Shown here piece after piece: positions 2,194-52,298 of a DNA stretch of 64,000 nucleotides. Position 1 is the first letter of the stretch. Each line of letters begins with the position of its first letter. The stretch lies in NCBI RefSeq assembly GCF_048403405.1, contig NZ_CP183129.1; one strand, 5' to 3'. A program made the translations under genes and the position numbers. This stretch comes from Escherichia coli. GTDB taxonomy: Bacteria > Pseudomonadota > Gammaproteobacteria > Enterobacterales > Enterobacteriaceae. Under the pieces are notes generated by a model. That model was not told the origin of the DNA. It was given only the letters and a program-made list of their open reading frames with translations, and searched no databases.

Positions 2194-2573
2194 TAAACAC
2201 CCCCTGAAAAATAATTTTTCAATGCATTAAAAAATATCAACAACTACGTTATTCCGCAACAACCTACTTTTTTTACCATTTTTCCACTTTAACAACTTTT
2301 TGCTCCACTTTTCCAAGACCAAACAAATTGAAATCTGGCTAAAACAACATACAACACTATTATTCGTCTTTCTCGAGTCCGCCCGGAGTTCGAAAAACAA
2401 ACCGAGTTAAAGCCATTTTTCAAAAAATCGATTTTAGGTTACACCAAAATTACGGGACTGCATCCAAATTTGTTTATTTTCGAACGTATACATACAAATA
2501 TGTGCAATAATAAGCGAAATAATTTTTGGATATGCATTATGATATGTACACCAATTTCGTATAGAGTCTCACT

Positions 2574-3164
2574 ATGTCTCGAATTTTTGCTTACTGTCGG
2601 ATATCAACTCTGGATCAGACCACCGAAAATCAACGCCGGGAAATCGAAAGTGCAGGCTTTAAAATCAAACCTCAGCAAATAATCGAAGAACACATTAGCG
2701 GCTCAGCAGCAACCAGTGAGCGTCCTGGTTTTAACCGGTTGCTTGCTCGCCTGAAATGTGGTGATCAATTGATTGTGACAAAACTGGATCGCCTTGGTTG
2801 TAATGCAATGGATATCAGGAAAACAGTGGAACAACTGACCGAAACAGGTATCAGAGTGCATTGCTTAGCATTGGGGGGCATTGACCTGACCAGTCCAACA
2901 GGAAAAATGATGATGCAAGTAATTTCAGCAGTCGCTGAATTTGAACGAGACCTTTTACTTGAACGCACTCATTCCGGGATAGTAAGAGCCCGGGGCGCAG
3001 GGAAACGTTTTGGTCGACCACCTGTGTTAAATGAAGAACAGAAACAGGTGGTATTCGAACGAATTAAGTCAGGTGTAAGTATAAGTGCCATTGCCCGGGA
3101 ATTCAAAACCTCGCGGCAAACCATTTTAAGAGCCAAAGCAAAACTTCAGACACCTGACATATAA
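2574..3164 (+). CDS. serine recombinase (PinQ/PinR-like resolvase/invertase family)
   Basis: 196 aa; N-terminal YCRISTLDQ catalytic-serine motif; C-terminal HTH. Confidence 0.85.
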
Positions 3165-3391
3165 AAAATAATCTCGGTGTGAGATGCTTTACGTCTTCCA
3201 AGCCCCCTTCCTTGCCGTAAATGGAAAGATACATCTAATTATAGAATTTATATGTTTTACCCTACGGCAGTGCTGGCCATTCAATATCCTGTGCAGTTGA
3301 CGTATCAACACGGTTCAGCAACACCCGATACTTTTTCCAGGCTTCCAGCAACGGGGTTTCTTCCTCCGTTGCATATACAGCTCACCTTTTT

Positions 3392-3691
3392 TCACCCACG
3401 ATTAACCAACAGCCAGACCAGCAGACACGCCACCACCGGCACAGCAAAATCCATCAGGCTTGCCACATCCCACACGCGCGGATCAAAACCGCCCCACCAC
3501 GGCATGTTAATCCTCTTGCCATGCCCAAACATTTCAATCCAGCGATATTCCGCCTGGGTGTGTTCACGCGCAATGAAGAACGTACAACCGGCTATCGCCC
3601 CGTAAGCCCAGTTCCCGGTAAAAAGACCAACCAGTAGCTGCGCAGCCACAGCACAAAGCGCATGAAGGAAAGGTGTTATATCCATTTTCAT
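3392..3691 (-). CDS. hypothetical small membrane protein
   Basis: About 99 aa with two or three hydrophobic segments, downstream of the tail fiber genes. Confidence 0.45.
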   Translation of the reverse strand: MKMDITPFLHALCAVAAQLLVGLFTGNWAYGAIAGCTFFIAREHTQAEYRWIEMFGHGKRINMPWWGGFDPRVWDVASLMDFAVPVVACLLVWLLVNRG

Positions 3692-3727
3692 CCTACCCAA
3701 TAAAACGGGGCGCTCGGCCCCTTGATA

Positions 3728-4768
3728 TTATTTAGACGCAAGCGCCGCCTCAATTGCAGATAATCTTTGTCTTAATTCTGCGTTTTCTTCTTCCAGTGCT
3801 GTTATTCTGTCGTCTGACTCTCTGGCTACCTGAACAAGCAAGCCAGTAACACCAGAATAATCTACTGTGTAATAACGTTCACCTTCTTCACCTTCCGATC
3901 CGCTTGCGCCGTCCTGATATTTCATTGCGGAACCTACAACTTCTGGGATTGCTTCCAGAGCTTCCTGTGCAATGACACCAGCATAGGGCATACCGTTTTC
4001 TTTAAGCGTGTATGTATAGCCGTTCATTTTACGGATGCGGTCGGTTGCATTATCGATCACCTGAATGTTGTCTTTCAGATCCCGGTCGGAATGCTGGTTA
4101 AATGCGGTGGCATGACATGCACCATTAACGCTTAACATATAGGTGTTATCGGTATTTTTTTGCGCATAGAACATATAAGCGCCACCATCAACACCGACTT
4201 CATAAACAACAGGACGGCTGGAGTTGCCCCACAATTGAGCAGTAACACCAGCATAAGCGGTTCCCTGTGTGTTTAATGTCATGGTTGACCCATGATTGGC
4301 ATATTTGATCTGTAATGTGTCGGTGTAATCAAATTTAATAAGCGCGTTACTTCCACGCTTGCTGTATGACATAAGGCAGTTACCCATTTTGAGGTATCCG
4401 CTGTCACCGGGAAAAATCATCGTACCGCCATAAAGGTTGGTAAAGTCCCAGCAAATGTTTGTCCCGTTATCGTTCAGGTTAAGGCGCGCCATTGCGTTAC
4501 CTGGACTGTCTATCCATTTTTTGAGGTATAGTTCGCAATACGCATCCTCAACACCTGCCGTCCTGTGAGTTGAGCGGAGTTTTCTCCCAAATATAGCTCC
4601 GCTAGTTGGCAATACCTGCTGATACCATGAAGCAGACCAGTCACCAACGATTTCATCTTTGCTGTCTACATATAATTTTGTTGCGTAGCTTCCTTGATCG
4701 TTTTTTAATTTGCTAACGTCGGATTTTAGCGTTTTGATGTCATCAGGAATTACTGTCGATGTAGCCAT
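3728..4768 (-). CDS. tail fiber/receptor-binding protein with C-terminal intramolecular chaperone (peptidase S74-like) domain
   Basis: 346 aa; C-terminal SDRDLKDNI...GYTYTLKENG...ALEAIPEVV followed by a coiled-coil tail, typical of auto-processing chaperone domains. Confidence 0.7.
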   Translation of the reverse strand: MATSTVIPDDIKTLKSDVSKLKNDQGSYATKLYVDSKDEIVGDWSASWYQQVLPTSGAIFGRKLRSTHRTAGVEDAYCELYLKKWIDSPGNAMARLNLNDNGTNICWDFTNLYGGTMIFPGDSGYLKMGNCLMSYSKRGSNALIKFDYTDTLQIKYANHGSTMTLNTQGTAYAGVTAQLWGNSSRPVVYEVGVDGGAYMFYAQKNTDNTYMLSVNGACHATAFNQHSDRDLKDNIQVIDNATDRIRKMNGYTYTLKENGMPYAGVIAQEALEAIPEVVGSAMKYQDGASGSEGEEGERYYTVDYSGVTGLLVQVARESDDRITALEEENAELRQRLSAIEAALASK

Positions 4769-4777
4769 TTTTCTTCC

Positions 4778-5059
4778 TCACATCCAGCCACGAAGTTGAT
4801 GCTCAACAGCAACCACGTATTCATCGAATAATGACGATATTTGCGAATCATTAATGATGCGCACGTTTACAAAATATCCGTCTTCCTTAACACATACCGG
4901 TTCGCCATCTTCAGTCAGTTCTCCGGTTTCTTTGTACACGTTACCTATCACGTCAATAAGAATATCATCCTGCATCAACTCGTCATCATAATAGCCAATG
5001 CTCTCCATAAAGGCCGAAAAGTCGGCCCTGTCGGGAAATTTGAGTGTTAAATCTTTCAT
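4778..5059 (-). CDS. hypothetical acidic protein (93 aa) between the fiber genes
   Basis: ORF overlaps the stf stop by 1 nt, suggesting translational coupling. Confidence 0.5.
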   Translation of the reverse strand: MKDLTLKFPDRADFSAFMESIGYYDDELMQDDILIDVIGNVYKETGELTEDGEPVCVKEDGYFVNVRIINDSQISSLFDEYVVAVEHQLRGWM

Positions 5060-7440
5060 TAGATTGACTCCCCCACCTGAGCATCAGTCAATGCCTTGTG
5101 CCATATTCTGAAATTCCTTACATGACCAAATAAATGACGTAACCCGGCTGTAGTCTGGCCTCCAATACGGATAATTGCGGTGTTCTGAATACAGGACCAT
5201 GTGGTTTTTGTTTCGCTGGATATACGCCCGTTACTTACTGCGCATGTAGACTGATCAGACTTTACACGCATCCCCATAACCATTTTTTCAAGTGATGCAT
5301 TTTCGTTTATCCGTCTGTTAGACCCACCAATATCGCAATAAGGAAATCCGTCGTAATCTGCTGAAGAACCGAAGCCAAGAATAATAGCCGCTCCGGTTTG
5401 ATGACCGCCGGTATCAAAAACACGCGGTGCTGCATTTGGCGTTTTATACCAGTTCTTATGTACCTCACAAAGAACCGTAAAAGGAAGATTATAAAGATTA
5501 TTCTTAATGGGAACTGTGACTATATCGCTTGCGCGGGTCGCCGCCGTCGTTCCTGATATAATAAAAGATGATACACAAGGCCCATTTTCTACTTGTGGGG
5601 TGGCCAGATAAATATAGTCACCAGATACGGTTGCCCCGCCCTGCTTAGGAGAATACTGTATCTGAGAACCTATTTTTAACTCCCCATCAATTGCCTGAAT
5701 TGTTGCCTCTGCAAAAATCCATCCGATAACTTCGTCCTTTCTGACTCTCGCTGTAATCCTTGAGGCAGCGCCGCCTGTCATATTAATTTCAAGCGTTTGT
5801 GTATCAATATACACATCACCAAGAAAAGTTGTTGCGCTACCGTCATATTTATCAAATCGGATACGCAACCTTACCTGCAGTTCTGTTTTAAAACGACATG
5901 AGGTTGTCACGTATTTATTATCGCCTGAGACATCAACTGACTTTGTTGCAGCAATTGATGCCATATTAATGGCTGAGGTTTGCCCAATCAGAGAATCGTT
6001 ACAGACAAACTTTCCATAGGTAAAACCAAAACTATCCGTCCCGGTTTCGGGAACATCCATATTTGACGATCGCCCCCAACTGGCAGGGCTTTCCGAATTG
6101 AGCATGTAGTTCGTTCTTTGCCCCTCAATAAGCAGGCCATCACGTTCAAACCGTGGCTCGTCAATGGCAGCCTCTGTCAGCACACCAGATTTATTAATAT
6201 AGGTTGCTTTCGATGCGCGTTTAAACTTAACAACCTTGTCGCCAGGCATCGTTATTTCATCATCACCAATAACAATCTTTTTATATGACGGCGAAAAGCC
6301 CGTAATCATATCCAGCGAATCGTTAAATGGTATCCACACATCAGGCAGCGGCTGTAAGACATATTTATACGGCTCCGCAGCCTGGCTTGCGTACTCTCTG
6401 GCTGCATCTTCGCTTGCTTTAGCTGCCGTCTGGCTTGCTGCCGATGCTTTCGCTGAGTTCGCAGCCGCTGTTTCGCTCACCTTTGCGTTGGTTTCACTGG
6501 TTTTTGCTGCTTTTTGACTGTTAGCTGATGCAGTGGCAGAAGCAGCAGCCGCGCTTGCAGAACCAGCTGCAGCACTCTCGCTTTCGGCTGCTGCATCCTG
6601 ACTGCTTTTCGCCGCAGTTTCGCTGGCTTTGGCATTCGTTTCGCTGGTCTTCGCTGCCGTCTGGCTGGACTTTGCGTTAGTTTCACTCGTCTTCGCTGCT
6701 TTCTGACTGTTAGCCGCAGCAGTTGCTGATCCAGCAGCTGAAGTCGCAGAACCGGCTGCCGCGCTCTCGCTTTCGGCTGCTGCATCCTGACTGCTTTTCG
6801 CCGCAGTTTCACTGGCTTTGGCATTCGTTTCGCTGGTTTTCGCTGCCGTCTGGCTGGACTTTGCGTTGGTTTCGCTCGTCTTTGCGGCTGTCTCGCTATT
6901 TTTCGCGTTGGTTTCTGATTTTTTGGCTGCTGTCGCGGAGTTTTCTGATGCAGTCTGTGAGGTCGCTGCCGCCTGTGCACTATTAGCTGCATTCGTTTCT
7001 GAGGTTTTCGCCGCGTTCTTCGATGATGCCGCTGCAGTTTCGGATTTCTTTGCCGCCGCTGCGCTCTGAGAGGCGGCTTCGGCGTTGCGTGCCGCTTCTT
7101 CCACCATTTCCTCAAAACGACGCAATGCCTCCGGCATGACATCATCTTCCGTCATGGCACCGAGAAAATCATTCAGCGTACCTGGTCTGGAACCTTCATA
7201 GACGGTAATGGTTCCGGCATGTGAAGGCGGAAAACCTTCAACAAGCAGGATAACGCTGTACTGGCCATACTCAACATCCATGCTGTAACGCCCGGCTTCA
7301 TCCGGATTTTCAGAGGCCACCGTGTTCACCAGTACCGTGGTGCTGTTACGCTTTGCCTTCAGTTGAATAGTGCAGTTCTGTATTGGTTTTCCCGCACCAT
7401 CTTTCAGCACACCTGAGATTTTTACTGCTGCCATATCCAC
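5059..7440 (-). CDS. stf: side tail fiber protein (lambda Stf-like N-terminus, Ala/Ser/Thr-rich repeats, distinct C-terminal domains)
   Basis: N-terminus MAAVKISGVLKDGAGKP..NCTIQLKA matches lambda Stf; C-terminus ends GHVRNFRIWHKALTDAQV (lectin/LamG-like motif). Confidence 0.85.
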   Translation of the reverse strand: MDMAAVKISGVLKDGAGKPIQNCTIQLKAKRNSTTVLVNTVASENPDEAGRYSMDVEYGQYSVILLVEGFPPSHAGTITVYEGSRPGTLNDFLGAMTEDDVMPEALRRFEEMVEEAARNAEAASQSAAAAKKSETAAASSKNAAKTSETNAANSAQAAATSQTASENSATAAKKSETNAKNSETAAKTSETNAKSSQTAAKTSETNAKASETAAKSSQDAAAESESAAAGSATSAAGSATAAANSQKAAKTSETNAKSSQTAAKTSETNAKASETAAKSSQDAAAESESAAAGSASAAAASATASANSQKAAKTSETNAKVSETAAANSAKASAASQTAAKASEDAAREYASQAAEPYKYVLQPLPDVWIPFNDSLDMITGFSPSYKKIVIGDDEITMPGDKVVKFKRASKATYINKSGVLTEAAIDEPRFERDGLLIEGQRTNYMLNSESPASWGRSSNMDVPETGTDSFGFTYGKFVCNDSLIGQTSAINMASIAATKSVDVSGDNKYVTTSCRFKTELQVRLRIRFDKYDGSATTFLGDVYIDTQTLEINMTGGAASRITARVRKDEVIGWIFAEATIQAIDGELKIGSQIQYSPKQGGATVSGDYIYLATPQVENGPCVSSFIISGTTAATRASDIVTVPIKNNLYNLPFTVLCEVHKNWYKTPNAAPRVFDTGGHQTGAAIILGFGSSADYDGFPYCDIGGSNRRINENASLEKMVMGMRVKSDQSTCAVSNGRISSETKTTWSCIQNTAIIRIGGQTTAGLRHLFGHVRNFRIWHKALTDAQVGESI
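6511..6888. repeat. tandem direct repeat, 189-bp period (about two copies), inside stf
   Basis: ctcgctttcggctgctgcatcctgactgcttttcgccgcagtttc occurs at about 6577 and 6766; protein repeat AAKTSETNAKSSQTAAKTSETNAKASETAAKSSQDAAAESESAAAGSA. Confidence 0.8.
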
Positions 7441-7498
7441 TCCACAAAAAAGCCCGCCTGAACCGGCGGGCTGTCATAACACTGTGTTACCTGGCTAA

Positions 7499-8098
7499 TC
7501 AGAATTTATAACCGACACCCACGATGAAACCGTCAGTGCGCCAGTCACCACTGCCGGAACCTTCATAAGCAAGGTCAATGGCCACGGATTCGGTCGGGTT
7601 AAACTGCACGCCAGCCCCCCACGCCAGAGACGTGTTGCTGTGGCGACCGTCATCACTTCCGGTCAGCACATCGTGCGTTTTCCCCTTGTTGTCAGTTACG
7701 CGGAGATAATCCCCGGAGAAGGTCGACACACGGCTGTAAGCCATACCCGCCATCGCATAAGCACTGAACCATTCATTCACGCGTACAGATGGCCCCGCCA
7801 TCATGCTGAACCAGCGGTTACGCACGGAATCTTCATGCCAGCGGGTATCGCTGTAATGCGTTTTTTGCTCATCTTTGGCATTGGCATAACTGAATGACGT
7901 CACCAGCCCCAGCGTGTCCGTAAATTCATAACGGTATTTCACGTTAATGCCCTTCAGGTCATCACTGCCTGGCATATCAGTATGGGTCTGAAGATACCCG
8001 GCGCTTAGTGTGGACTGATGCTCTGCTGCGCTCGCTGGCGTACCAGCGGCAACCAGCCAGACTACTGCGGACAGAATAACAGCACATAATTTACGCAT
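7499..8098 (-). CDS. lom: Lom outer membrane protein (Ail/Lom family)
   Basis: 199 aa with signal peptide, C-terminal ...GVGYKF; position after J as in lambda. Confidence 0.9.
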   Translation of the reverse strand: MRKLCAVILSAVVWLVAAGTPASAAEHQSTLSAGYLQTHTDMPGSDDLKGINVKYRYEFTDTLGLVTSFSYANAKDEQKTHYSDTRWHEDSVRNRWFSMMAGPSVRVNEWFSAYAMAGMAYSRVSTFSGDYLRVTDNKGKTHDVLTGSDDGRHSNTSLAWGAGVQFNPTESVAIDLAYEGSGSGDWRTDGFIVGVGYKF

Positions 8099-8165
8099 AA
8101 TTACCTCTCGCTTTTCTGCAATAAAAAAGGCGTCATTTCTGACGCCCGTATTGGGGTTATAAAAT

Positions 8166-11100
8166 TCAGCTGATACTGATGCCTGCGGTGGCTTTCTTCA
8201 TCACCACAACCAGCAAATCGCTGATACTTGCTGTGGGATACCAGTCATTTACCAGCCATGCTGACACCGAAAACTCCAGCGTCATGTGACCGTGACCGGC
8301 AGGCATATCAATAACGCCACTGTAAATCAGCGTATTATCCAGCGCGGTACGGTTATAAATTTCAGCACCGTTTTTCCGCACTATCAGACGGCATGAGGAG
8401 TAAATATCAGTATGCTCTCTCTCATGTTTAGCGCCGCTGAATGCCACCGCCGGAATAACAATCTGCCGGTCAAACGGCTGATCGTCATAAATCCTGACGG
8501 TAATGGTCCCTGATGGCCACCGTTCCGGTGCACGGGAGTCCCGGGGGAAAGCTTTGCCCACTGTTTTAACGAGATCGCCTTCAATCTGGTTCGCGGACAG
8601 TTTTCCCAGAACCCGGCAGTTCTCGTTAATCGTGACGTTGTTGAGCGTCCCGGAGTTCGCATTCACGTTACCGCTGATATCGGCATTTTTCGCCGTCAGC
8701 CGCCCGTCCGGTGTCAGGGAAAATGCCGGAGGATTACCGCCGCTGGTAATGGTGGGAGCCGTCAGATATTTCAGGAACACTTCATTCATAAATATCTGAT
8801 CGCCCTGACCAACAAACATCGGCTTTGTGTTGCCATTCGCAGGATTAACCATCGCAATCCTGTCCGCCGCCAGCAGCACCTGACTCTGCATACCGTCAGG
8901 AGTATTCTCAATACCGGCACCAATACCCGCGATATAAAGGCGTCCGTCCTGCATCTGCTGCAGCTTCACAGCCCACATGCTGTTCAGGTTATTATTTGTA
9001 TCAACCTGAACCTTCTGTATCTGCTGAATTACCGCACTCTGGTCTTCCAGTTTATTATTGACGGTCTGCGTGATTTCATTGCTGACATCCGTAATGGACG
9101 TCCTGATTTCAGCCAGGTCAGGCGCAAGCTGACCGTTATCAATCTGCGTCCACAGCTCCTGAGCCAGATGGCTTTTCCCTATCTCGCCTTTGAAAAAATC
9201 CAGATAGCCGGATGCATCATCACTCGGCTGGCCAACAGCCTCCACAAATGCCGATTTGCCAACGGTGTTCACACTGCGGATGTAAAAATAATAATCATGG
9301 CCCGGTTTGATATTGATACTGGTGGCTATCCAGTACAGCGCCGTGCCAAGATAGCGGGCTGTGGTTTCAACCTGCCTGATATCGGTAATCCGCGTTTCCG
9401 AGAACCAGAACTCAAACTGTACCGTCGGATCATAAACCGCAAGATGCGGCGTGGCAGTTATCTGAAAATAGCCCGGCGTCAGCTCAATCCGCGACGGCGC
9501 TGCCGGTGCGGCAATCCGGAACGATACCGATGCCGGATCGCCCTGCTGTCCCCACGCATTTACCGCCCGGACCGTCAGCGTGTAACGCCCCAGCGCCAGT
9601 TGCCTGAAGCGGTATGTGGTTTCCGTCGTCCTGGCCGTGCTGACCAGCCGCTCACTGCCGTCGTCCGCTGCCACGGTCAGGCGAAGCAGGAAGCTCACGC
9701 CCTTCACCACCTTCGGCGTGTCCCAGCGGGCCAGTACCTGATACTCCCCGCTGTCTGCGGTGACTTCGGCAGTCAGGTGCTGCACCGCTGGCGGCGTGAC
9801 ACCATTCACCGTGCCGCTCTGGTCACCGTCAAAGTGCGCCCCGTTATCCACGATGGCTTCTTTCTCCGGTACATGCTGCACGGCGGTGATGGCATACGTG
9901 CCATCGTCGTTCTCACGGATACTCACACAGCGGAACAGGCGCTGGCGCAGCGTCGGCAGCTTCAGCCCCCATACGCTGTATTCAGCAACACTGTCAGGAA
10001 CACGGCTCACTTTTACCTTCACGCCGTCGGTGACGGACTGAACCTCCACGCTGACCGGATTGCCACTTCCGTCAACCAGGCTTATCAGCGTGGTACCGGA
10101 GGATGGCAGCGTGATTTCACGGTCGAGCGTCAGCGTCCGGGTCTGGCTGTTCACCGCCAGTACACGACCACCGGTGCTGATACCGGCATAGTCATCATCA
10201 CAGATTTCAATAACATCGCCCGGTACATGGCGAAGCCCTTCTGCGCCGACGCTGAAATCCACGGTCTGCGTTTCCAGCAGTTCCGTTTTAATCAGCCACA
10301 GCCCGGCGCGGTGTGCCTGCCCCCGGCTGGTACAGCCAAAGGCATCCATCTTCGTGACGTTACGACCGTAACGGGCAATGGCCTGCGTGTCCTCCACAAG
10401 CTCTGTCGCCGTCTCCCAGCCGTTGTTCGGGTCAATCCAGTTCACCTCAACGGCATTATGGCGGTCCTTCAGGGCGCTGAAGCTGTAGCGGAACGGCGCG
10501 CCATCATCCGGCATCACCACATTACTGCGGTTATAGGTCCACACCTTATCCGACGGTCGGTCCTGCACGAATGTCAGCGTCTGCCCGTTCCATACCGGCA
10601 TACAGCGCATCGCCGAGCAGAAATCACTGAGCACATCCCACGCCTTGCGCTGTGTGGCCAGGTACGCATTACAGGTGATGCGCGGCTCCGTGCCGCCAAA
10701 ACCATCCGGCACCGACTGGTCGCAATACTGGCTGATGACATACAGCGCCCATTTATCCACATCTGCCGCACCAAGACGTTTCCCCATGCCGTAGCGCGGA
10801 TGGGTCAGCATATCCCACAGACACCAGGCCATGTTGTTGCTGTATGCTGGCTTAAACGTTCCGTCCCAGATACCGCTGTATTGCCGCGTCTGCGGGTTAT
10901 AGTTCGACGGCACCTGCAGAATGCGCCCGCGAAGATGATAATTACGGCTCACCTGCTGGCTGCCGAACTGCTCCGAATCCACCTGCACGCCGACCAGTGC
11001 CGTGTTCGGGTAGCACTGTTTCACATCGATGATTTCGGTGTATGACGACCAGAGCGTTTTGTTCTGCAGCTGGTCTGTGGTGCTGTCCGGCGTCATTCTG

Positions 11101-16608: not shown

Positions 16609-17439
16609 ACCGGACTCCTCCTGCGATCCCTTCTGATACTGTCATCAGCATTACGTCATCCTCCGTCATGTCCGCCACATCCGGGGAAGCGGAGATAACT
16701 TCATTCCCGTCCGGGCCAAAGCGGACACCTCCGGCAAGCCCTGCCGCTTTCTGCATCAGCACATCATCTTCAGGCTCTTCGTCAGCCTCGCGCCGGTTCA
16801 GCAGACTGAAATCCAGCGGATGCATATCCGGATCGCTGAAAAACAGGCTGAGCACGGTGTACGTCAGCCCGGAAAAGTGCATATCCAGCAGAACATCATG
16901 AAAATAATGGGTACTGTAAAAACGGTGCCAGTCGGCATACTCCGTGGATGACATCCCGGCAAGCATGGCACGCCAGTCGGGTCGCCCCATCTCACGCGCC
17001 AGTTTCAGGGCAAAACTCAGCTCACCGTCGAACACTTTCCCGCAGAAACAGGCTCTGCGGGCCCGGCGTCCTCTGTCTGTTCAGGGGCATTATTCACAAC
17101 AAACTCATACATACCGGACAGCCGGTACACCACGTTTTCAGCATGAGAAATTGCCTCTGTAGGCCAGGTGGTAAGCACTTCCTGCTCAATCTGTTTAACG
17201 GCTTCATTCATGGAAGGCATCTGCGTCTTCTGCGGATGGTTATGCCACAGGGACATCGCTACCACAAAAGCACCGGTTCTGATGGCGTCTTCCACAGTAA
17301 ACTTCCGGTTGCTGTCTGACTCCGCCTGTTCTGCCTGCCGTTTCATCAGGGCGAGATGCTCAATACGCTGCAGGGCTGACAGTTCAGAAAGCGTGACGGT
17401 CACACCGTTATGTTCAAATGATTCGGTTTTCAGGAACAT
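16601..17439 (-). CDS. tail assembly chaperone G-T (programmed -1 frameshift fusion)
   Basis: T frame ORF 16601..17035 overlaps the G 3' end; slippery GGGAAAG present. Confidence 0.8.
17017..17439 (-). CDS. G: tail assembly chaperone G
   Basis: 140 aa, lambda G-like. Confidence 0.9.
   Translation of the reverse strand: MFLKTESFEHNGVTVTLSELSALQRIEHLALMKRQAEQAESDSNRKFTVEDAIRTGAFVVAMSLWHNHPQKTQMPSMNEAVKQIEQEVLTTWPTEAISHAENVVYRLSGMYEFVVNNAPEQTEDAGPAEPVSAGKCSTVS
17033..17039 (-). other. slippery heptamer G GGA AAG for the G-T -1 frameshift
   Basis: Plus-strand ctttccc, 14 nt upstream of the G stop. Confidence 0.7.
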
Positions 17440-17454
17440 CTCTGACTCTCCGGA

Positions 17455-18195
17455 TTAACTGGCGGTGACGGTGATTTCTGCAACCGCAGCAAACTCACCA
17501 TTACCGGATACGACCGGAATGTTGACCTTACCTGCAGCAACGCCATTCACGGTGATGGTCATACCACTGACCGACACGGTGGCTTTTGTTTTATCCGCTG
17601 ACACCGCACGGAAGCTCTTGTCGGTTGCGCCTTCCGGCTGGAATGCCACGGTCAGCGTGGTGCTCTTCCCTTTCACTACGGAAGCGCTGGCTGGCGTCAC
17701 GGTCATACCGGTTGCCGCTGTTACCGTGCTGCGTTCTTCTGCCATCGACGGACGTCCCACATTGGTGACTTTCACCGTGCGGGTGATCACTTCCTTCGCC
17801 GTCACCGCCTTACCGATACTGCTGACCCAGCCACGGAACACATCGACCGTGCCGTTCGGGAAGCGGATTTTATAGGCACGGGTATCGCCTTCATTAAACC
17901 ACGCCAGCAGCGCCTGCTGCCCCTGCTCTCCGGGCATCCACGCCAGCGTGAAGCTGGTATCTCCGGCAGATTTCTGCCCCTGCCCGGTCGCGGTCCAGTC
18001 TGCATCTTCATCATCGAGATAGCTGTCGTCATAGGACTCAGCGGTCAGTTCGCCGGGCGTCAGGTCTTTAACTTTAGCCAGACGCGACCAGTCAACGTCT
18101 GAAAGCGGGTTCGCATAAGGGTCACCGTTCCCCTTATAAACCCACAGGGTGGTCCCGGCCCCTTTCACCGGCATTACTGGATTTGGTACAGGCAT
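17455..18195 (-). CDS. V: major tail protein V
   Basis: 246 aa, lambda V-like with C-terminal Ig-like domain. Confidence 0.95.
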
Positions 18196-18203
18196 ATCGT
18201 CCT

Positions 18204-18212
18204 CACATTTCA
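18204..18212. repeat. IS1 target-site duplication, left copy (cacatttca)
   Basis: Identical 9-mer at 18981..18989. Confidence 0.9.
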
Positions 18213-18267
18213 GGTGATGCTGCCAACTTACTGATTTAGTGTATGATGGTGTTTTTGAGGTGCTCCA

Positions 18268-18543
18268 GTGGCTTCTGTTTCTATCAGCTGTCCCTCCTGT
18301 TCAGCTACTGACGGGGTGGTGCGTAACGGCAAAAGCACCGCCGGACATCAGCGCTATCTCTGCTCTCACTGCCGTAAAACATGGCAACTGCAGTTCACTT
18401 ACACCGCTTCTCAACCCGGTACGCACCAGAAAATCATTGATATGGCCATGAATGGCGTTGGATGCCGGGCAACCGCCCGCATTATGGGCGTTGGCCTCAA
18501 CACGATTTTCCGCCATTTAAAAAACTCAGGCCGCAGTCGGTAA
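18268..18543 (+). CDS. insA: IS1 InsA
   Basis: 91 aa, [23 protein letters not shown]... Confidence 0.95.
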
Positions 18544-18965
18544 CCTCGCGCATACAGCCGGGCAGTGACGTCATCGTCTGCGCGGAAATGGACGAACAGT
18601 GGGGATACGTCGGGGCTAAATCGCGCCAGCGCTGGCTGTTTTACGCGTATGACAGGCTCCGGAAGACGGTTGTTGCGCACGTATTCGGTGAACGCACTCT
18701 GGCCACACTGGAGCGTCTTCTAAGCCTGCTGTCGGCCTTTGAGGTCGTGGTATGGATGACGGATGGCTGGCCGCTGTATGAATCCCGCCTGAAGGGAAAG
18801 CTGCACGTAATCAGCAAGCGTTACACTCAGCGAATTGAGCGGCATAACCTGAATCTGAGACAACATCTGGCAAGGCTGGGACGGAAGTCACTGTCGTTCT
18901 CAAAATCGGTGGAGCTGCATGACAAGGTCATCGGGCATTATCTGAACATAAAACACTATCAGTAA
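18462..18965 (+). CDS. insB: IS1 InsB (normally expressed as InsAB' by -1 frameshift)
   Basis: 167 aa ORF overlapping the insA 3' end. Confidence 0.9.
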
Positions 18966-19375
18966 GTTGGAGTCATTACCCACATTTCATAGGTAATGAC
19001 ATAAGTCAGATCGGCTGAACTCCACAGGCCCGCATCATCGTCGCGCCGGTAGTCATAGCCGCTGGCCACCATACTGGTGATCAAATCTGACAGTGCCGGG
19101 ATATCACTCATCACCGGATAAATCCGGGACTCCATCCACTCATCCAGCTCTGAATCCGGCACCTGAGCAGGCAGGAAAACTTCGATATGCAGCTCCGCCT
19201 GCCAGGTATCGCTGTCCAGCTCTTCGCCCGTGTATTCAGCGCCGGTGAGATAAACGGCAACTGCCGGAAAATCCGCCTCATCAAAAACAGCGGGGCGACC
19301 ATCAAAAAACGTCGCCCCGGTGTCATGCTTCTCCAGTGCATCCAGTACGGCTGCACGGAGTTCAGTATGTTTCAT
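18959..19375 (-). CDS. U: tail terminator protein U, stop codon displaced by IS1 (7 extra residues read from IS1)
   Basis: Lambda U-like to ...VITYEM, then WVMTPTY encoded by the IS1 end. Confidence 0.85.
18981..18989. repeat. IS1 target-site duplication, right copy (cacatttca)
   Basis: Identical 9-mer at 18204..18212. Confidence 0.9.
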
Positions 19376-19950
19376 CGCTTTATTACCATTCTCAGTTGAT
19401 GCTGCAGCGCATAGCCCAGCTCTTTCGGAAGACGCTCACGCCGTATCCGCTCAATATTTTGTTTAAACGCCGTGGTCAGCGGCACCGCCATCGGGATTTT
19501 CACTACATCAATGGGGTAACGGTTTTTCCCGGCCACACGCTGCATGACATGCCAGCGGCCATTTTTCAGTTGCTGAATAAACGCGCCGGGAATACGACGG
19601 TTTCCCACCACAAGCACGCTGCCGCCACCTTTCAGGGCTGAACGCTGCCCCTTTTTACGACGCCTGCGTCGGGACAGGACAATCCGCGCGTTACCCAGCT
19701 TGATTACGGGCAAATCCCCCCGGTTAACCTTGATTCTGGCCTGCGGATTTTTAACCGTAGCCCTTTTCAGCCTGGCCCTTTCCTTTACCAGTTTCCGGCG
19801 TACCTTTGTCTCACGGGCAACCTGTGACGCCGACTGCGATATCGCGGATGAAGCAACGCGGTTAATGGCCATTGCGGCGGCACCAGGCACCGCCGTTTTG
19901 CTGATACGGCTGAGGTTTTCAACGGCCTGCTCAAGACCTTTTATGGCCAT
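19372..19950 (-). CDS. Z: minor tail protein Z
   Basis: 192 aa, lambda Z-like. Confidence 0.9.
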   Translation of the reverse strand: MAIKGLEQAVENLSRISKTAVPGAAAMAINRVASSAISQSASQVARETKVRRKLVKERARLKRATVKNPQARIKVNRGDLPVIKLGNARIVLSRRRRRKKGQRSALKGGGSVLVVGNRRIPGAFIQQLKNGRWHVMQRVAGKNRYPIDVVKIPMAVPLTTAFKQNIERIRRERLPKELGYALQHQLRMVIKR

Positions 19951-20725: not shown

Positions 20726-20766
20726 GGACTTCTCCACAGAGAGACAATGGCCCCGAAGGGCCATGA

Positions 20767-27925: not shown

Positions 27926-27937
27926 AGGTCGCCGCCC
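27926..27937 (-). other. cos site (cosN 12-nt cohesive end GGGCGGCGACCT on the minus strand), cosB region toward Nu1
   Basis: Plus-strand aggtcgccgccc, preceded by ...cgaaaacccgcg, matching the lambda left end in reverse complement. Confidence 0.85.
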
Positions 27938-28136
27938 CGTAACCTGTCGGATCGCCGGAAAGGACCCGAAAAATGATAATAATTATCATCTACATATCAC
28001 AACGTGCGTGTACGCCATCAAACCACGTCAAATAATCAATTATGACGCAGGTATCGTATTAATTGATCCGCATCAACTTAACGTAAAAACAACTTCAGAC
28101 AATACAAATCAGCAACACAGAATACGGGACAACCTC

Positions 28137-28331
28137 ATGTCAACGAAGAACAGAACCCGCAGAACAACAACCCGCAACATCCGCTTTCCTAACCAAATGA
28201 TTGAACAAATTAACATCGCTCTTGATCAAAAAGGGTCCGGGAATTTCTCAGCCTGGGTCATTGAAGCCTGCCGTCGGAGACTAACGTCAGAAAAGAGAGC
28301 ATATACATCAATCAAAAGTGATGAAGAATGA
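28137..28331 (+). CDS. hypothetical small protein, possible ribbon-helix-helix fold
   Basis: 64 aa MSTKNRTRRTTTRNIRFPNQMIEQINIALDQKGSGNFSAWVIEACRRRL...; beta-alpha-alpha pattern; the upstream in-frame extension crosses cosN and is rejected. Confidence 0.4.
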   Translation: MSTKNRTRRTTTRNIRFPNQMIEQINIALDQKGSGNFSAWVIEACRRRLTSEKRAYTSIKSDEE

Positions 28332-28581
28332 ATATCCCGGTTTCTTTACCTCCCCTCCCACCCCGCACAGGACTGGCGAGCGTGTGGGACAAATATGTGA
28401 GTCATAAACGCCTTATCCTCAGAAATGCAGTTGGCATCCGAACAGGACGATATTGTAAATTCACCTAATTACGAGGCATTGCAGTAGTTGAATTGTAGTT
28501 CTGTATTAGCCTGACAGTGACAGAATGCGATATTGACTCTGTCACAGGTGAAATAGTTTGAATGGTTAGCAGTTATGGTGA

Positions 28582-28788
28582 TCAGTCAACCACCAAGGAA
28601 TAATCCTTCGAATTCTTATCGTGCTTCACCAACGCTGCCTCAATTGCCCTGAATGCTTCCAGAGACACTTGATGTTCTATACATGCAATTACAACATCCG
28701 GGTAACCCATCGAAATGGTGCTATTAAGCATAGTTTTTACACGAATCTGCTCCTGGGAGGGGGCATCAGTGTATTGATCTTTATGCAT
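28582..28788 (-). CDS. hypothetical protein (68 aa)
   Basis: ORF only; cos-proximal late-region gene. Confidence 0.35.
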
Positions 28789-29083
28789 TTTGTCGCTCCA
28801 TGCGTTTGCTCTTCACTTGCGGCTAAAAATATAACGTCAAATCACTCAGCATGAAAGAGTGAAAGTTTCAGCGCGTTTCCCTTACATAATCTGTCATTTG
28901 TATTCTCTTCAGGCATACCGGAAAGACTAGGTATTGTCACACAACCAATACCATCGACAATCGAGATTTATATCTATTCGGTAATGTTTAAATATAACAA
29001 AACCCCGTAAAAACGAGGTTTATGGGTAATTTGTATTGTTGAATAGCATCTGATGAGAAATTGATGCTAATACTATAAACATA

Positions 29084-29257
29084 CTAGATTAAATCAATCT
29101 TGATATCATAGCTTTCAAGACCAGTCATTTTTTCCCGTGCAGTAAACTGGATACTGGTAACTTCTTTCCCGGTCTTTTTCTTAAGCTCAATGATTTTTTT
29201 TGTTATATATTCAGAAATATCTGCTTCTGTTTTTGTTTTTAACTCTTCAATGTTCAT
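29084..29257 (-). CDS. GnsA/GnsB-family protein
   Basis: 57 aa from MNIEELKTKTEADISEYITKKIIELKKKTGKEV...REKMTGLESYDIKIDLI. Confidence 0.6.
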   Translation of the reverse strand: MNIEELKTKTEADISEYITKKIIELKKKTGKEVTSIQFTAREKMTGLESYDIKIDLI

Positions 29258-29429
29258 CATTTCCTCTTTTAGTCTGTTATGACTTTCCTGGTACACAGTA
29301 GTGTCAATTATATGGAGCAAACGTATAAAAGATAAGATGAAACATCGCAATAATCAACATACGACGGTCTAAATTTCACACAAACAGATAAAGATGATTA
29401 TCATTTATTATCAATGCATTAGAATCAAA

Positions 29430-29660
29430 TCAATTCAAGAGTCTCATTGCTGCTTCCAGAATTTCTTCTGAAGTTACATGTCGATCCGCTGCTACATAAA
29501 TGACTTTATGATCTCCGGTCAGAGATGGAAACCCTGCAGCCATTACAGTGAGGTGTGTTGTTTCGCCATTTGGATATTCACGCATGATGGTGTTAACTCC
29601 GGTCATCACTGGCACTACCATTGCTGGTTCAGAGTTAAAAAAAACTATTATTTTTTTCAT
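29430..29660 (-). CDS. hypothetical protein (76 aa)
   Basis: ORF only, start chosen at MKKIIVFF. Confidence 0.35.
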   Translation of the reverse strand: MKKIIVFFNSEPAMVVPVMTGVNTIMREYPNGETTHLTVMAAGFPSLTGDHKVIYVAADRHVTSEEILEAAMRLLN

Positions 29661-29931
29661 AATGTTACCGTAATATGTGAGTATCCATCGACTAGACACT
29701 AAGCAAAAAAGCTCCCGAAGGAGCCTTCATTTTCACTTTCTTAAATCTAACGACAGACGGCTAACATTTAAGTATTGTGAAATATTATCAAATGTAATCA
29801 TCATTGATTTACAAAAGATACATTTTGCCCCGAAAGGATTCCTGTCAGAAACATCAAAAGATGATGTTCTATACTGAGAACCATGGCAACACGGGCATCT
29901 AAAGTGAATATGGTTTGTAATATTTTCTACC

Positions 29932-30144
29932 TCAAAGTGCCACTACATGAACAGCCGCGGGGCCTTTAGGTCCGTTCTCAATACCAAATTCGACTTCCTG
30001 ATTCTCAGTTAACGTTTTGAAATCGTTGCTCTGAATAGCTGAGAAATGGACAAACACATCTTTGCTACCATCTTTCGGCGTGATGAAACCAAAACCTTTT
30101 TCAGGGTTAAACCATTTCACTAAACCAGTCATTTTGTTAGACAT
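29932..30144 (-). CDS. cold-shock protein (CspA family, CspI-like)
   Basis: [23 protein letters not shown]...; RNP motifs. Confidence 0.9.
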
Positions 30145-30508
30145 CATTATTACCTTTTGAAGAAGTTAGCCCTTGGGCAGAATGGTCCGAAAAAAAAATA
30201 TCAGAGAGAAAAACCAACAAGGAAATCTCAAGAGGTACAAATAATAAATTTATAACAATGACTGCTTCAGATAATTTTGTAACAAACCAGAACACCATTA
30301 ACGCATGATTAACCAACCATAGCAAGGATTACTTTTGTAAAGAAAAACACACGAATGAAACAATAGCTTTATTTATTAATAAAACGTGTCATTCTGTCTA
30401 ATGACCTTTTATCTTACCCTTAAGATTTCAAGGATTTTGACTCATGGAAGAGTCCTTTTTATTTAAATTTCACATTCAGCGCTAAAAATAATCCGATTTA
30501 ATATTAAT

Positions 30509-31536
<1,028 letters not shown>

Positions 31537-31649
31537 GGATATTTATCAGGATTTATCGGCTTCAAATCCCTGGATATGTTAAATCTTACCTCACCAGTGA
31601 TGGGCACTGGCGGGAGGAGGATGTCAATCTGATAAACACAGAGGTGACT

Positions 31650-31910
31650 ATGGATTACACAAATCTACCAAAACAAACTTTTGCTGATTTAATCGCACTC
31701 AGGCAAGCAGTCGTAGCCCTAATCAACTTGTTGCCGGAGAAGGAAAAGGAATTAGTTAAAGCGCTTCTTAACAGAACTGCCGCCGATTTTTCATCATATC
31801 CACTGACAGATGACCTTGCGGACCTTCCTGAATTAATTGCAGCGTCCGCCATTAAGCTTACTGAAGAGATTTACCCTCCTCAAAAATCTTCACAAAATTC
31901 CTGCGAGTAA
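31650..31910 (+). CDS. possible antisense-oriented hypothetical protein (86 aa)
   Basis: Strong RBS gaggtg 5 nt before the ATG; lies in the R/ydfR-like intergenic region on the opposite strand. Confidence 0.25.
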   Translation: MDYTNLPKQTFADLIALRQAVVALINLLPEKEKELVKALLNRTAADFSSYPLTDDLADLPELIAASAIKLTEEIYPPQKSSQNSCE

Positions 31911-32409
31911 CTTCAATGCAATAATCGTAAAACGCCGCAAACTGCTCATCGCGGCGTTTTTTTTCATCTTCAGAAGGAATCAGCACCGACAATTTTTTAT
32001 TCAGATCAGCGACGCTGCCCTCCAGTTTTTCAATGGGCGATTCAATATCATCTTTTTCTGACCGCAATGCCGTCGGTGGCGTCTTCAGAGAACCAGTAAT
32101 TCTTCCCGGTAGCTTTCCTTTGTAGGTTATCCACACATTCTGCGCCTCTAAAATTATGGGGCGCTTTTCCGGCGACTGCTCATCCCCTTCACATAACCCG
32201 GCTGCAACTTCCAGGAAGACCTGTCTGATGCTCCTTCTGGCTGCTGCCTCATAAAACTCCAGCGCGGCACCTTCAACACGGTCCAGCGAGATGTCCAGGT
32301 CAAAAATTTCACCGTCAAAGCGTTTTTTGTCCCTTAATGCTACAGTTACCGCAACTTTATTCTCAAAATTGCGGATCCCTTTCACAATCAGTTCATAGTT
32401 TTGTGTCAT
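31858..32409 (-). CDS. hypothetical protein, YdfR-like, between holin and endolysin
   Basis: 183 aa from MTQNYELIVKGIRNFENK...; same position as ydfR in Qin. Confidence 0.45.
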   Translation of the reverse strand: MTQNYELIVKGIRNFENKVAVTVALRDKKRFDGEIFDLDISLDRVEGAALEFYEAAARRSIRQVFLEVAAGLCEGDEQSPEKRPIILEAQNVWITYKGKLPGRITGSLKTPPTALRSEKDDIESPIEKLEGSVADLNKKLSVLIPSEDEKKRRDEQFAAFYDYCIEVTRRNFVKIFEEGKSLQ

Positions 32410-32413
32410 TGAA

Positions 32414-32629
32414 TTACTCTCCCCGTGCAACCTTACGCTTGTCTTCTTTAATCTTGAAATAAAGGTTTGTCAGGTACGTCAGCAAGCCAAATACCAGACT
32501 ACCCAGCACACCGATTGCAGCCCACTGTGACGGAGTTACTTTATCGAGTAACTGCAATGCCCAGAAACCAGCATTACCAGCCGATGTGCCATAGGCGATA
32601 CCTGTTGTTAACTTATCCATTGATTTCAT
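32414..32629 (-). CDS. S: pinholin (phage 21 S-like holin)
   Basis: 71 aa [31 protein letters not shown]..., two TM segments, paired with a SAR endolysin. Confidence 0.85.
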
Positions 32630-32847
32630 ATCCTCACCCCGATGTACACAGATGGTGCAATATGTTTGAAAAGATCGGAGTCTATGGGGTAGTTTTTATA
32701 GCAAACGTTGTTCTCAACGGCGCTAAAAAACAGACACATTAAAAATGTGGGTAATTATTTTAAAAGAAAATCATATGTTAAATAATAATACGAGATATGT
32801 TTTCATATTTAGTGTACTGTATACGGCCATTTATACAGGAAAAGCCT

Positions 32848-33018
32848 ATGTCAGAACGTAAAGACTCAAAATCACGCCGTAATTATCTCGTTAAATGTTC
32901 CTGCCCAAACTGCACCCAAGAGTCAGAACACAGTTTTTCAAGAATACAAAAAGGTGCCCTTTTGATCTGCCCTCATTGCAACAAAGTATTCCAGACAAAT
33001 CTTAAAGCTGTAGCTTGA
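32848..33018 (+). CDS. YnfN-like small Cys-rich protein
   Basis: 56 aa MSERKDSKSRRNYLVKCSCPNCTQ...CPHCNK; CxC...CxxC zinc-ribbon-like. Confidence 0.5.
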   Translation: MSERKDSKSRRNYLVKCSCPNCTQESEHSFSRIQKGALLICPHCNKVFQTNLKAVA

Positions 33019-33075
33019 TTGATTTTATTCGTAACAAGTATTTTTTATATTTTAATAACATATTTAAAGCAGATA

Positions 33076-33097
33076 ATAAAAAACCCGCCTGAGCGGG
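33076..33097 (-). terminator. intrinsic terminator downstream of the cspB-like gene
   Basis: Hairpin cccgcctgagcggg with U-run on the minus strand. Confidence 0.4.
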
Positions 33098-33381
33098 TTT
33101 AATATTGTGGTACTTTTTGTGGGAGTCATCCACTTACGCACTTTGTTTTGCTATGCCAGCAGTTAGCTTCTGCTGTAAAACTATTCATGCAGCAAACCTG
33201 CACTTCACCACAATGGTTAGCATACTTTTCCTGATTAAGTTATTGCCAAATATGCTGGCCATTGTTTCATGTATTGGACCTCCTTACTATTTATTAAAGA
33301 GATCCAATATTCACCACTCTGTCTGTATCTCCACTCAGGCATCAGCCTTCTTCGTTATCGTATACAGACAAACTATGAATT

Positions 33382-33597
33382 TTAATCAGTAATTATGACA
33401 TTTGCTGCTGCAGGACCTTTAGCACCACTCTCTACAGAGAAGGTAACCTTTTGACCTTCAAATAAGGTTCGATAATTATCATTCTGAATCGCAGAAAAAT
33501 GCACAAACACATCTTTACTACCATCAACAGGAGAAATAAAGCCAAAACCTTTATCAGCGTTAAACCATTTTACTAAACCAGTCATTTTATTTGACAT
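33382..33597 (-). CDS. cold-shock protein (CspB/CspI-like)
   Basis: 71 aa [23 protein letters not shown]... Confidence 0.9.
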
Positions 33598-33896
33598 TCT
33601 ACATTCCTTAACTTGAGCCTTTCGGCATAAATGGCTTGTATAACAGAAACGACTTCGTACTTAATTGGAGAGACTCAAAGAAGGAATAAGTGAATAACAC
33701 CTGAAATGAGAACTGCTTTAGTAAACTACTTCGTATATCGTCTGTTCTTCAAACCGACGCAATCATTAACGCATAGTTGAACATATGAAGCAATGTTTAT
33801 TTTAGACATCCAGCCATCTTCAACCCCATCAAAAAACTATAGCTTTCTTCAGGAACGTGTGTATAGTGCGCCAAGTTATCAGTATTAAGGAATTTT

Positions 33897-34109
33897 TTGT
33901 CCCGTAAAATGACAGGAATTCTCAAAACCTTTGACGGCAAAAGCGGCAAAGGTCTTATAACCCCATCCGATGGTCGTATCGATGTCCAGCTTCATGTTTC
34001 AGCGCTCAATCTCCGCGATGCAGAAGAAATTACCACCGGATTACGCGTGGAATTTTGCCGGATAAATGGTCTGCGTGGACCATCAGCTGCCAATGTTTAC
34101 CTTTCATGA
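33897..34109 (+). CDS. cold-shock-like protein (CspF/CspH-like)
   Basis: 70 aa [23 protein letters not shown]... Confidence 0.85.
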
Positions 34110-34404
34110 GCTATATTAAAGCTTTAACTTCAAGCCCCATCGAATCAAACATGGAGAGTTTTCATGAATAAACCCGTCTGTCTTGATGACTGGTTGATTG
34201 GCTTTAAAAGCTTATGCTGTACTTTGACCTTAATAGCTCTGCTAATAATGTAATAAGCAAACTCATTGTATCTATGGACATTGTACTGGAAGAAAACATT
34301 TTAAACATCAGGCAAAAAACAAAGTCACCCGATAAATAATAAGTAAACTAACATGAATCCCGTAATGAGATTCAACATCTCTATTACCCTATTTAAAGCA
34401 CAAA

Positions 34405-34430
34405 AACCCGCTCATCAGCGGGTTTTCTAC
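34405..34430 (-). terminator. tR'-like intrinsic terminator of the short late-leader transcript
   Basis: Hairpin cccgctgatgagcggg followed by tttttg on the minus strand, about 45 nt downstream of the PR'-like promoter. Confidence 0.5.
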
Positions 34431-34471
34431 TTTTTCTTAACTTCGGGTATACAAAGCCCATCGTTGAAAAA

Positions 34472-34500
34472 ATTTTATCCATATTTTTTGAAAAATGCAA
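34472..34500 (-). promoter_or_regulatory. late promoter PR'-like (-35 TTGCAT, 17-nt spacer, -10 TAAAAT) with presumed qut region
   Basis: Read on the minus strand immediately downstream of the Q stop. Confidence 0.5.
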
Positions 34501-34531: not shown

Positions 34532-35284
34532 TTATCTCGTCACCTTTCTCAATTGTGCTTCAGCGTAAGATTCCTCCTGCCAGCACTTTGTAACCAGTTT
34601 ATCAATGACATTTGCATATCCTTTATACCACTGATAATCACTCAGGTCCGGTACCAGCTTCTGGACATGATACCGCGCCAGTGTGGTTGGTAAACGACTA
34701 AACCGTTTTCCATTGCAACGCCCACAAATCTTATAAACAGGTGTGCCATGAAGCCGGGTCCTTTTTTCATCCAGGACAATACCTTTACCCTTACACCCTC
34801 TGCACGCTGTGCTGACTTCTCCCTTACCATGGCAATGCTGACATAGTTCCTTCACCCACTCTTCTTTGATAACAGATTCCCCGCTTCTGGAGTGTTTCAC
34901 CACTTCGCGCAATACATTATGAAATCCAGTACCAGCACAATGCTCACAACGAGCCTTACTTGCCGCAGACCTGGAATAATCAGCAAAGGCAAAATTCACA
35001 AGGTAAGGAATAATCTGTAGCCGGGTTTCTTCACTCAATTTATTCAATGTCGGGTTATCCAGTGCCATCGCGTAATTGAGCAGACCTTCAATCGCAAACT
35101 GAGGATCCTGAACACCAACTTTTGCCAGGAATAAGGCAAACCCAAGCGGTGCTTTCGATTGCACCATCCCCTGCGCAGCCATCACATCCGTAATCGTTAA
35201 ACCACCAGAGCCTGTCGCCGGTGCGTCATCACTCAATTTTGGAGATTTTGGGGAGTAATATTTTGGTAAGGCTTCAAGGTTCAT
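34532..35284 (-). CDS. Q: late antiterminator Q (phage 82/Qin QuuQ-like)
   Basis: 250 aa with multiple CxxC zinc-binding motifs, upstream of the late promoter. Confidence 0.8.
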   Translation of the reverse strand: MNLEALPKYYSPKSPKLSDDAPATGSGGLTITDVMAAQGMVQSKAPLGFALFLAKVGVQDPQFAIEGLLNYAMALDNPTLNKLSEETRLQIIPYLVNFAFADYSRSAASKARCEHCAGTGFHNVLREVVKHSRSGESVIKEEWVKELCQHCHGKGEVSTACRGCKGKGIVLDEKRTRLHGTPVYKICGRCNGKRFSRLPTTLARYHVQKLVPDLSDYQWYKGYANVIDKLVTKCWQEESYAEAQLRKVTR

Positions 35285-48826: not shown

Positions 48827-49055
48827 TACTCACCTTGTACAAATCGCAAAACACCTCTGCTGCTTTGTACATTATGTACAAGCATATGTACAGATTTTTG
48901 ATGAAAGCAACCTGATCGATTTAAAGTTACATGAAAGAATTTTCAATTAAAGAAGCCACATAACCATATGTATTTAAATGAGTTATATAACCAGACCTCA
49001 ATTAACTGAAAGGATTTTGAAAGAGTAAAAGAGCTTTAATTTGGGATTAATTATT

Positions 49056-49121
49056 GGGGTGAGAAATAATGGCAAAAGTGCGGCGCTTCGCCACCTCTTG
49101 CAAATAAGGAGACAACGTCAT
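49056..49121 (-). pseudogene. prfC: orphaned original 5' end of prfC (first 22 codons, [22 protein letters not shown]), with its native upstream region to 49210
   Basis: Minus-strand ATG at 49119..49121; frame ends in phage DNA after about 24 codons. Confidence 0.7.
49057..49070. repeat. att core copy (integrase-proximal junction)
   Basis: Direct repeat of 822..835, 230 bp beyond the integrase start. Confidence 0.6.
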
Positions 49122-51865: not shown

Positions 51866-52064
51866 GTATCTGATATCTGTCGCCGCATACCGTGTCGGAT
51901 GCGGCGTACACGCCTTCTCTGACCGACAAACGAATTATCCACAATCCGCTGATGGACATTTTTCCAGCAATTACACCTCCGGCGATAATTAACTATTGAC
52001 GAAAAGCTGAAAACCACTAGAATGCGCCTCCGTGGTAGCAATTCTTTTTAAGAATTGATGGTAT

Positions 52065-52150
52065 GCGAAGGTGGCGGAATTGGTAGACGCGCTAGCTTCA
52101 GGTGTTAGTGTCCTTACGGACGTGGGGGTTCAAGTCCCCCCCTCGCACCA
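52065..52150 (+). tRNA. leuV: tRNA-Leu (anticodon CAG)
   Basis: gcgaaggtggcggaattggtagacgcg...ttcaagtcc...cgcacca; long variable arm; CUUCAGG anticodon loop. Confidence 0.9.
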
Positions 52151-52178
52151 AAAACCACGTTGATATTGCTCGCACTGG

Positions 52179-52264
52179 GCGAAGGTGGCGGAATTGGTAG
52201 ACGCGCTAGCTTCAGGTGTTAGTGTTCTTACGGACGTGGGGGTTCAAGTCCCCCCCTCGCACCA
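52179..52264 (+). tRNA. leuP: tRNA-Leu (anticodon CAG)
   Basis: Near-identical tandem copy. Confidence 0.9.
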
Positions 52265-52298
52265 AACGAGGCGATATCAAAAAAAGTAAGATGACTGT

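Follow-up and report, generated by a model that had tools for sequence, protein, structure and literature searches.

Whether the genes beyond an insertion sequence in a polycistronic operon are still expressed is a question posed by the U/V locus of a lambda-like prophage in Escherichia coli (contig NZ_CP183129.1), where an IS1 separates the gene of the tail terminator, U, from that of the major tail protein, V. The stretch that was analysed is 64 kb long and is called the window below; all coordinates refer to it. The earlier note on this DNA had argued that IS1 insertions are typically polar, that tail gene expression was probably impaired, and that the prophage might be defective despite its otherwise complete structural set.

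Anatomy of the insertion

By sequence inspection, an intact IS1 of 768 bp was found at 18213–18980. Its transposase genes, insA and insB, lie on the + strand and are antisense to the phage late operon, which is on the − strand. The element is delimited by a left inverted repeat (IRL, GGTGATGCTGCCAACTTACTGAT, 18213–18235) and a right inverted repeat (IRR, 18958–18980, with the other-strand sequence GGTAATGACTCCAACTTACTGAT), which match at 18 of 23 positions. The insA gene (18268–18543, +) encodes 91 aa, and the insB reading frame (18462–18965, +) is an ORF of 167 aa. The A6C frameshift motif at 18519–18525 joins insB to insA to give the InsAB' transposase. Together the two products covered positions 1–199 of the NCBIfam IS1 transposase model NF033558, InsA matching positions 1–81 and InsB positions 76–199. 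A promoter-like site at IRL, CTGCCA-16-TATGAT (18220–18247), represents the insA promoter region. The identity to K-12 IS1A was 96.35% over 768 bp, with no gaps. In RefSeq, the same element of strain TUM1226 is annotated as an IS1 transposase with programmed frameshift. The U/V insertion as such is ordinary for an IS, and it is already annotated in RefSeq.

On both sides, IS1 is abutted by a perfect copy of the 9-mer CACATTTCA (TGAAATGTG on the operon strand), and these two copies are its only occurrences on the + strand of the window. The V-proximal copy (18204–18212) begins with the base that forms the 5' G of the V Shine-Dalgarno sequence GAGGA, and the U-proximal copy (18981–18989) contains the last U codons and the TG of the old TGA stop. 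On the operon strand, the target reads TAT GAA ATG, then the U stop, divided by the insertion as TG/A, then GGACGAT and the ATG of V. Removing IS1 and one repeat copy in silico gave TATGAAATGTGAGGACGATATG, which contains the U stop, the Shine-Dalgarno sequence and the V start, and which matched the empty site of YDC107 exactly. In that empty site CACATTTCA is present once, and the two BLAST segments overlapped by this 9-mer at YDC107 positions 20750–20758.

The insertion altered the end of U and left V intact. U, assigned to phrog_37 (tail terminator), now spans 138 codons and a stop (18959–19375, −). The native 131 codons (18983–19375) are followed by seven added codons (WVMTPTY, 18962–18982) that are read into IRR, the operon strand of which is the coding source of the extra residues and also of the new TGA stop (18959–18961). 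Residues 1–131 were identical to lambda gpU (PDB 1z1z) at 130 of 131 positions. The tail completion gene Z (19372–19950, −) lies immediately upstream of U. V (17455–18195, −; phrog_41, E of 3e-126) encodes 246 aa from an ATG at 18193–18195. Its GAGGA (18200–18204) shares one base with the duplicated 9-mer; because the 9-mer was duplicated, the Shine-Dalgarno sequence is fully retained, and both it and the ATG are unchanged. The earlier note had described a complete 768-bp IS1 with perfect 9-bp duplications at the junction of the U stop and the V ribosome-binding site, oriented against the tail operon, upstream of V through J, lom and stf, with the U stop displaced and U extended by seven residues from the IS1 end. 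The ends, length and flanking repeats of the element, the gene annotation and the reading frame of U agreed with this description, and the site could be refined to the inside of the U stop codon, with the Shine-Dalgarno sequence of V kept whole.

According to RefSeq and Pfam annotations, the late genes follow the lambda order (Nu1-A-W-B-C-D-E-FI-FII-Z-U-V-G-T-H-M-L-K-I-J), with a cos site. The tail genes Z, U, V, G, T, H, M, L, K, I and J run on the − strand, followed by lom and stf, and the G-T slippery heptamer was located at 17035. No reading frame is broken by IS1 at U/V. Decay of the tail genes downstream of IS1 was looked for in the carriers of the insertion and none was found; these ORFs are all full length in the window and in TUM1226. 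In another carrier assembly, GCA_015472125.1, the genes Z, H, M and K are fragmented, and its alignment with the window shows nine gaps of one base each in 20 kb. These gaps are more likely to be long-read assembly errors than real decay; the sister assembly (L006) has none of them.

The prophage and its relatives with and without IS1

The insertion lies in a whole lambda-like prophage of ~48.2 kb including IS1 (822–49070), integrated in the 5' end of prfC. Scripted comparison of both ends showed that the prophage is bounded by the 14-bp repeat GGGTGAGAAATAAT at 822–835 and 49057–49070. Even with IS1, a genome of ~48.2 kb is within the packaging limits of lambda. The int gene is at 47603–48826 and the lambda cosN sequence GGGCGGCGACCT at 27926–27937; a LexA-type repressor, a CII-like protein, an O-like initiator, Q and the full lambda morphogenetic set are encoded as well. 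The prophage sits inside the 5' coding end of prfC and provides a replacement 5' end (836–883 and 49053–49121), and the displaced original prfC start appears in RefSeq as a 69-bp pseudogene beside yjjG.

Several further features of the region were observed. The late operon at 28000–34400 is crowded with host-like small genes, comparable to the Qin prophage of K-12: cspB, cspF and ynfU lie between Q and the holin, and cspI, ymcF, ynfN, a gene for a GnsA/GnsB-family toxin and ylcI between the lysis genes and Nu1. Several of these small genes have terminator-like hairpins of their own. A serine DNA invertase (Pin/Gin-like; recombinase family) adjoins fragments encoding a tail-fibre C-terminal part and tail-fibre assembly (2574–3164 and 3260–4770), which suggests an invertible host-range segment; no inverted repeat of at least 20 nt with good complementarity was found at 2300–8200. 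Outside the prophage, three tandem tRNA-Leu(CAG) genes are present at 52064–52385 and likewise in YDC107. The TUM1226 assembly shows a single one, because of a deletion or because the repeat collapsed during assembly.

The insertion was found to be rare. It was present in one of 5,426 complete E. coli genomes (TUM1226, from Japan), a set in which no genome was identical to the window, and about five further assemblies carried it. A U protein of exactly these 138 aa was encoded on six contigs, including two Japanese assemblies of 5.2 Mb and one short-read contig that ends inside IS1. CEA106S was considered as a second carrier and rejected, since it proved to be a joined match to another, unrelated IS1 that lies in its major capsid gene. 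The insertion was absent from 50,697 phage genome records. Packaged or independently spread copies were sought with the IS1 junction sequences in IMG/VR and the JGI metagenomes, and none were found; the uninterrupted U-V junction was present in 40 IMG/VR contigs.

TUM1226 was 100% identical to the window over V-IS1-U-Z (17455–19950), and the host flanks of the two were ~99.9% identical. The prophages differed by 265 substitutions, all of them within 3–16 kb (tail fibre, J, I/K and H), and were otherwise essentially identical. Recombination with a different lambdoid prophage probably replaced the tail-tip module in TUM1226, at a time when IS1 had already inserted.

Comparison with relatives lacking IS1, which the earlier note had named as a check, was made possible by YDC107. 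It has a nearly identical prophage at the same site without IS1, and over ~47.4 kb only five positions differed from the window, in three clusters. The coding changes were one silent change in stf, one missense change in J and one missense change in H. In contrast to the prophage, the host DNA was 1–4% different on both sides, with 26 substitutions in prfC at 17–821 and 95.7% identity beyond 51949. The presence of a near-identical prophage in divergent hosts implies that the IS1-free phage moved between E. coli backgrounds recently, and therefore that the parent is, or very recently was, a working phage. Literature on a 'phage YDC107' was also inspected and set aside; it concerns a Ravinvirus-type tail, not the prfC prophage.

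On the sequence evidence, the insertion is a genuine and fairly recent transposition. It is regarded as recent because the empty site occurs in a near-identical prophage, because carriers are few, and because the insertion is absent from the phage and metagenome sets. The carriers whose host flanks allowed a comparison have the same host background. This fits either a loss of transmissibility or a recent insertion.

Predicted transcription across IS1, and the altered tail terminator

Whether V to J are still expressed depends on how the late operon is transcribed. Q, a full-length late antiterminator of 250 aa from the lambda-Q family, is encoded at 34532–35284 (−). It matched phrog_127 with an E of 1e-107 and Pfam PF03589 twice, and its identity was 98% to the Q of SfV and 34.5% to that of lambda. 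Directly downstream of Q and 15.5 kb upstream of IS1, a putative pR' (TTGCAT-17 nt-TAAAAT, 34472–34500) is followed by a putative tR', a strong terminator hairpin (34402–34426), both recognized by their sequence pattern on the − strand (34402–34500). Judged in this way, Q, pR' and tR' are intact. Two further terminator-like hairpins on the operon strand, at 33100–33081 and 29021–29000, lie upstream of Nu1. With at least three such structures in its path, late transcription would already need processive antitermination for 15.5 kb before it reached IS1.

The explanation that we prefer, and to which we assign an even chance of being correct, is that IS1 inserted recently at U/V, that Q-modified RNA polymerase mostly reads through it, and that polarity attenuates the phage rather than abolishing it. 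By splitting the TGA of U, the insertion gives a gpU with seven extra C-terminal residues. It also separates U from V by 768 nt of antisense-IS1 RNA that is not translated, and the close spacing from the U stop to the V start is lost, with the Shine-Dalgarno sequence and ATG of V unchanged. In an ordinary operon, such an RNA would load Rho and cause strong polarity. Here read-through is expected, because the operon would be transcribed from pR' by a Q-modified polymerase that resists both intrinsic and Rho-dependent terminators, and transcription would mostly cross IS1. Each gene from V to J would then rely on a ribosome-binding site of its own, and the amount translated would probably be somewhat lower. 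The predicted cost of opening the Shine-Dalgarno–AUG region of V increased from 5.0–6.0 to 6.5–7.5 kcal/mol with IS1, a rise of ~1–2.5 kcal/mol, and with the proximity to the U stop lost, a modest reduction of the V yield is likely according to this model.

Several points count against the preferred explanation. At 34.5% identity to lambda Q, the suppression of polarity by this Q would be an extrapolation within the family. V is the most abundant tail protein, and the lost proximity to the U stop could lower its yield. The C>G-rich RNA would be a good substrate for Rho, and the consensus scan gave no promoter-like site that could rescue V. Finally, the IS1 allele was seen in one compared host background and in none of the phage and metagenome sets, whereas the IS1-free phage occurs in divergent hosts; this would fit either of the two histories named above.

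A strong polar block, in which transcription from pR' stops in IS1 and V to J are not made, would lead to lysis with filled heads and no tails, that is, to a defective phage. We consider this unlikely. IS1 is classically polar in both orientations, and in the window it lies within a polycistronic unit upstream of distal genes, as in polar insertion mutations. Translation of U ends 21 nt into IS1 and is followed by ~750 nt of untranslated antisense-IS1 RNA. The C/G ratio of this RNA was 1.15–1.5 over the first ~400 nt, compared with 0.6–0.9 in the flanking phage genes, which fits a Rho loading site. One weak terminator-like hairpin was found inside IS1 on the operon strand (18353–18339). No promoter-like site directed toward V was found on the operon strand at 17400–19400 by the consensus scan, which is weak evidence; the sole match was pIRL of IS1, on the + strand. 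The single host background of the compared carriers is also consistent with a block. Nevertheless, stronger terminator-like hairpins would already have to be passed upstream of IS1, in an operon whose late transcription would be Q-antiterminated, with Q, pR' and tR' intact, and the downstream tail genes were without decay in any carrier. In a 2025 review (PMC12360218), a passage that cites Forbes & Herskowitz 1982 calls the Q of lambda 'a proven polarity suppressor'. Moreover, an IS that disrupts no gene lies within the late operon of Sp5, the Stx2 prophage of O157 Sakai, and this prophage still transfers to K-12 (Asadulghani et al. 2009, PMC2669165).

The polarity argument of the earlier note is therefore partly supported. 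Its premise fits the C>G-rich RNA and the result of the promoter scan, but it overlooks the Q-modified polymerase expected from pR', the precedent of Sp5 and V's own ribosome-binding site. For a Q-antiterminated operon, the usual polarity of IS1 makes a weak argument, and a defect is a possible outcome. As the cause of such a defect, the altered U C-terminus or weaker V translation would be roughly as probable as polarity.

The U extension may matter as much as polarity, and it would be an equally plausible cause of a defect. If the main lesion were in the protein, the hydrophobic WVMTPTY on gpU would interfere with hexamer assembly, with the termination of tails or with their joining to heads, also in a phage that expressed V to J; as the principal explanation, this is also rather improbable. 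None of the 131 residues of gpU is disordered in the lambda virion, and the protein folds into a compact beta-sheet with helices at its sides (PMC10721106). Close relatives within the 90%-identity cluster have, with few exceptions, a length of exactly 131 aa. For the homologous T5 terminator p142, it was reported that the C-terminus lies in the monomer-monomer interface and that a C-terminal His6 tag caused aberrant fibre formation/polymerisation (bioRxiv 10.1101/2024.10.16.618446). These observations speak for a lesion in the protein; against it, more distant gpU homologues (P0113, P0123, P0144 and P0145) end naturally 6–12 residues past lambda M131. The position of the gpU C-terminus in the assembled ring is not stated in the lambda cryo-EM paper (PMC10721106). 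Among the other gpU homologues, P0016, P0025 and P0027 had C-terminal additions of 33–55 residues with a high content of Cys and Arg. These extensions look like frameshift or read-through products, i.e. other damaged U genes in public assemblies.

An assembly artefact or chimera, with IS1 misplaced by the assembler, is hardly credible: IS copies are a common cause of misassembly and one carrier contig (L007) stops within IS1, but the same junctions with perfect 9-bp duplications, the hallmark of real transposition, were found in several independent assemblies, including the complete TUM1226 and the two 5.2-Mb contigs.

Implications and comparison with known systems

Beyond read-through with attenuation, we raise tentatively, as something rather doubtful, the suggestion that the IS1-bearing phage is still infectious, with Q antitermination and the retained V ribosome-binding site making the late operon tolerant of intergenic IS cargo. 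If it is infectious, this lambda-like phage would be a natural vehicle moving an active IS1 between hosts, and also a natural test of the tolerance of gpU to a C-terminal extension. A viable phage would offer a natural case in which antitermination protects a phage from the polarity of an IS. In addition, the insertion could be reversed. The parental sequence would be regained if IS1 were excised precisely between its perfect 9-bp repeats, and recombination with other lambdoid prophages, of the kind visible in the tail region of TUM1226, could repair it. As a caution, when an IS lies between the genes of a late operon under Q antitermination, it should not be counted as inactivating by the standard used for host operons. 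The seven residues added to the tail terminator at this locus are easily overlooked and may be just as important. Taken by itself, the U/V insertion is one more IS in a prophage and matters little beyond annotation.

As an element, this IS1 shares with other members of its family (K-12 IS1A, R100 IS1R) the length of 768 bp, the imperfect terminal inverted repeats of 23 bp, insA and insB' joined by A6C, and the 9-bp target duplication. It differs from IS1A by 28 substitutions, as an isoform, and structurally in nothing. Like nu1::ISEc8 in the Sakai prophage Sp4 and the capsid-gene IS1 in CEA106S, it lies in the morphogenetic region of a lambda-like prophage. Those two insertions break a coding sequence and are plainly inactivating, whereas the U/V IS1 is at a gene boundary with every ORF readable.

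In the gal and lac operons, the polarity of classical IS1 insertions is reportedly suppressed by the N and Q antitermination of lambda. As in those cases, the U/V IS1 lies in a polycistronic operon before distal genes, and Rho-type polarity and its relief by antitermination would be expected. The gal and lac operons, however, are host operons transcribed by unmodified polymerase unless fused to phage promoters, whereas the U/V operon would natively be Q-antiterminated. The IS in the late operon of Sp5, presumably IS629, belongs to another IS family than the element studied here. Both prophages are lambdoid, and in each the IS is intergenic, lies in the Q-dependent late operon and leaves the coding sequences undisrupted; the Sp5 phage is transferable (PMC2669165). 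The two differ in position, the Sp5 IS being upstream of the lysis genes and the present one between U and V, and in their products: no structural protein is altered in Sp5, whereas gpU is extended here by seven residues.
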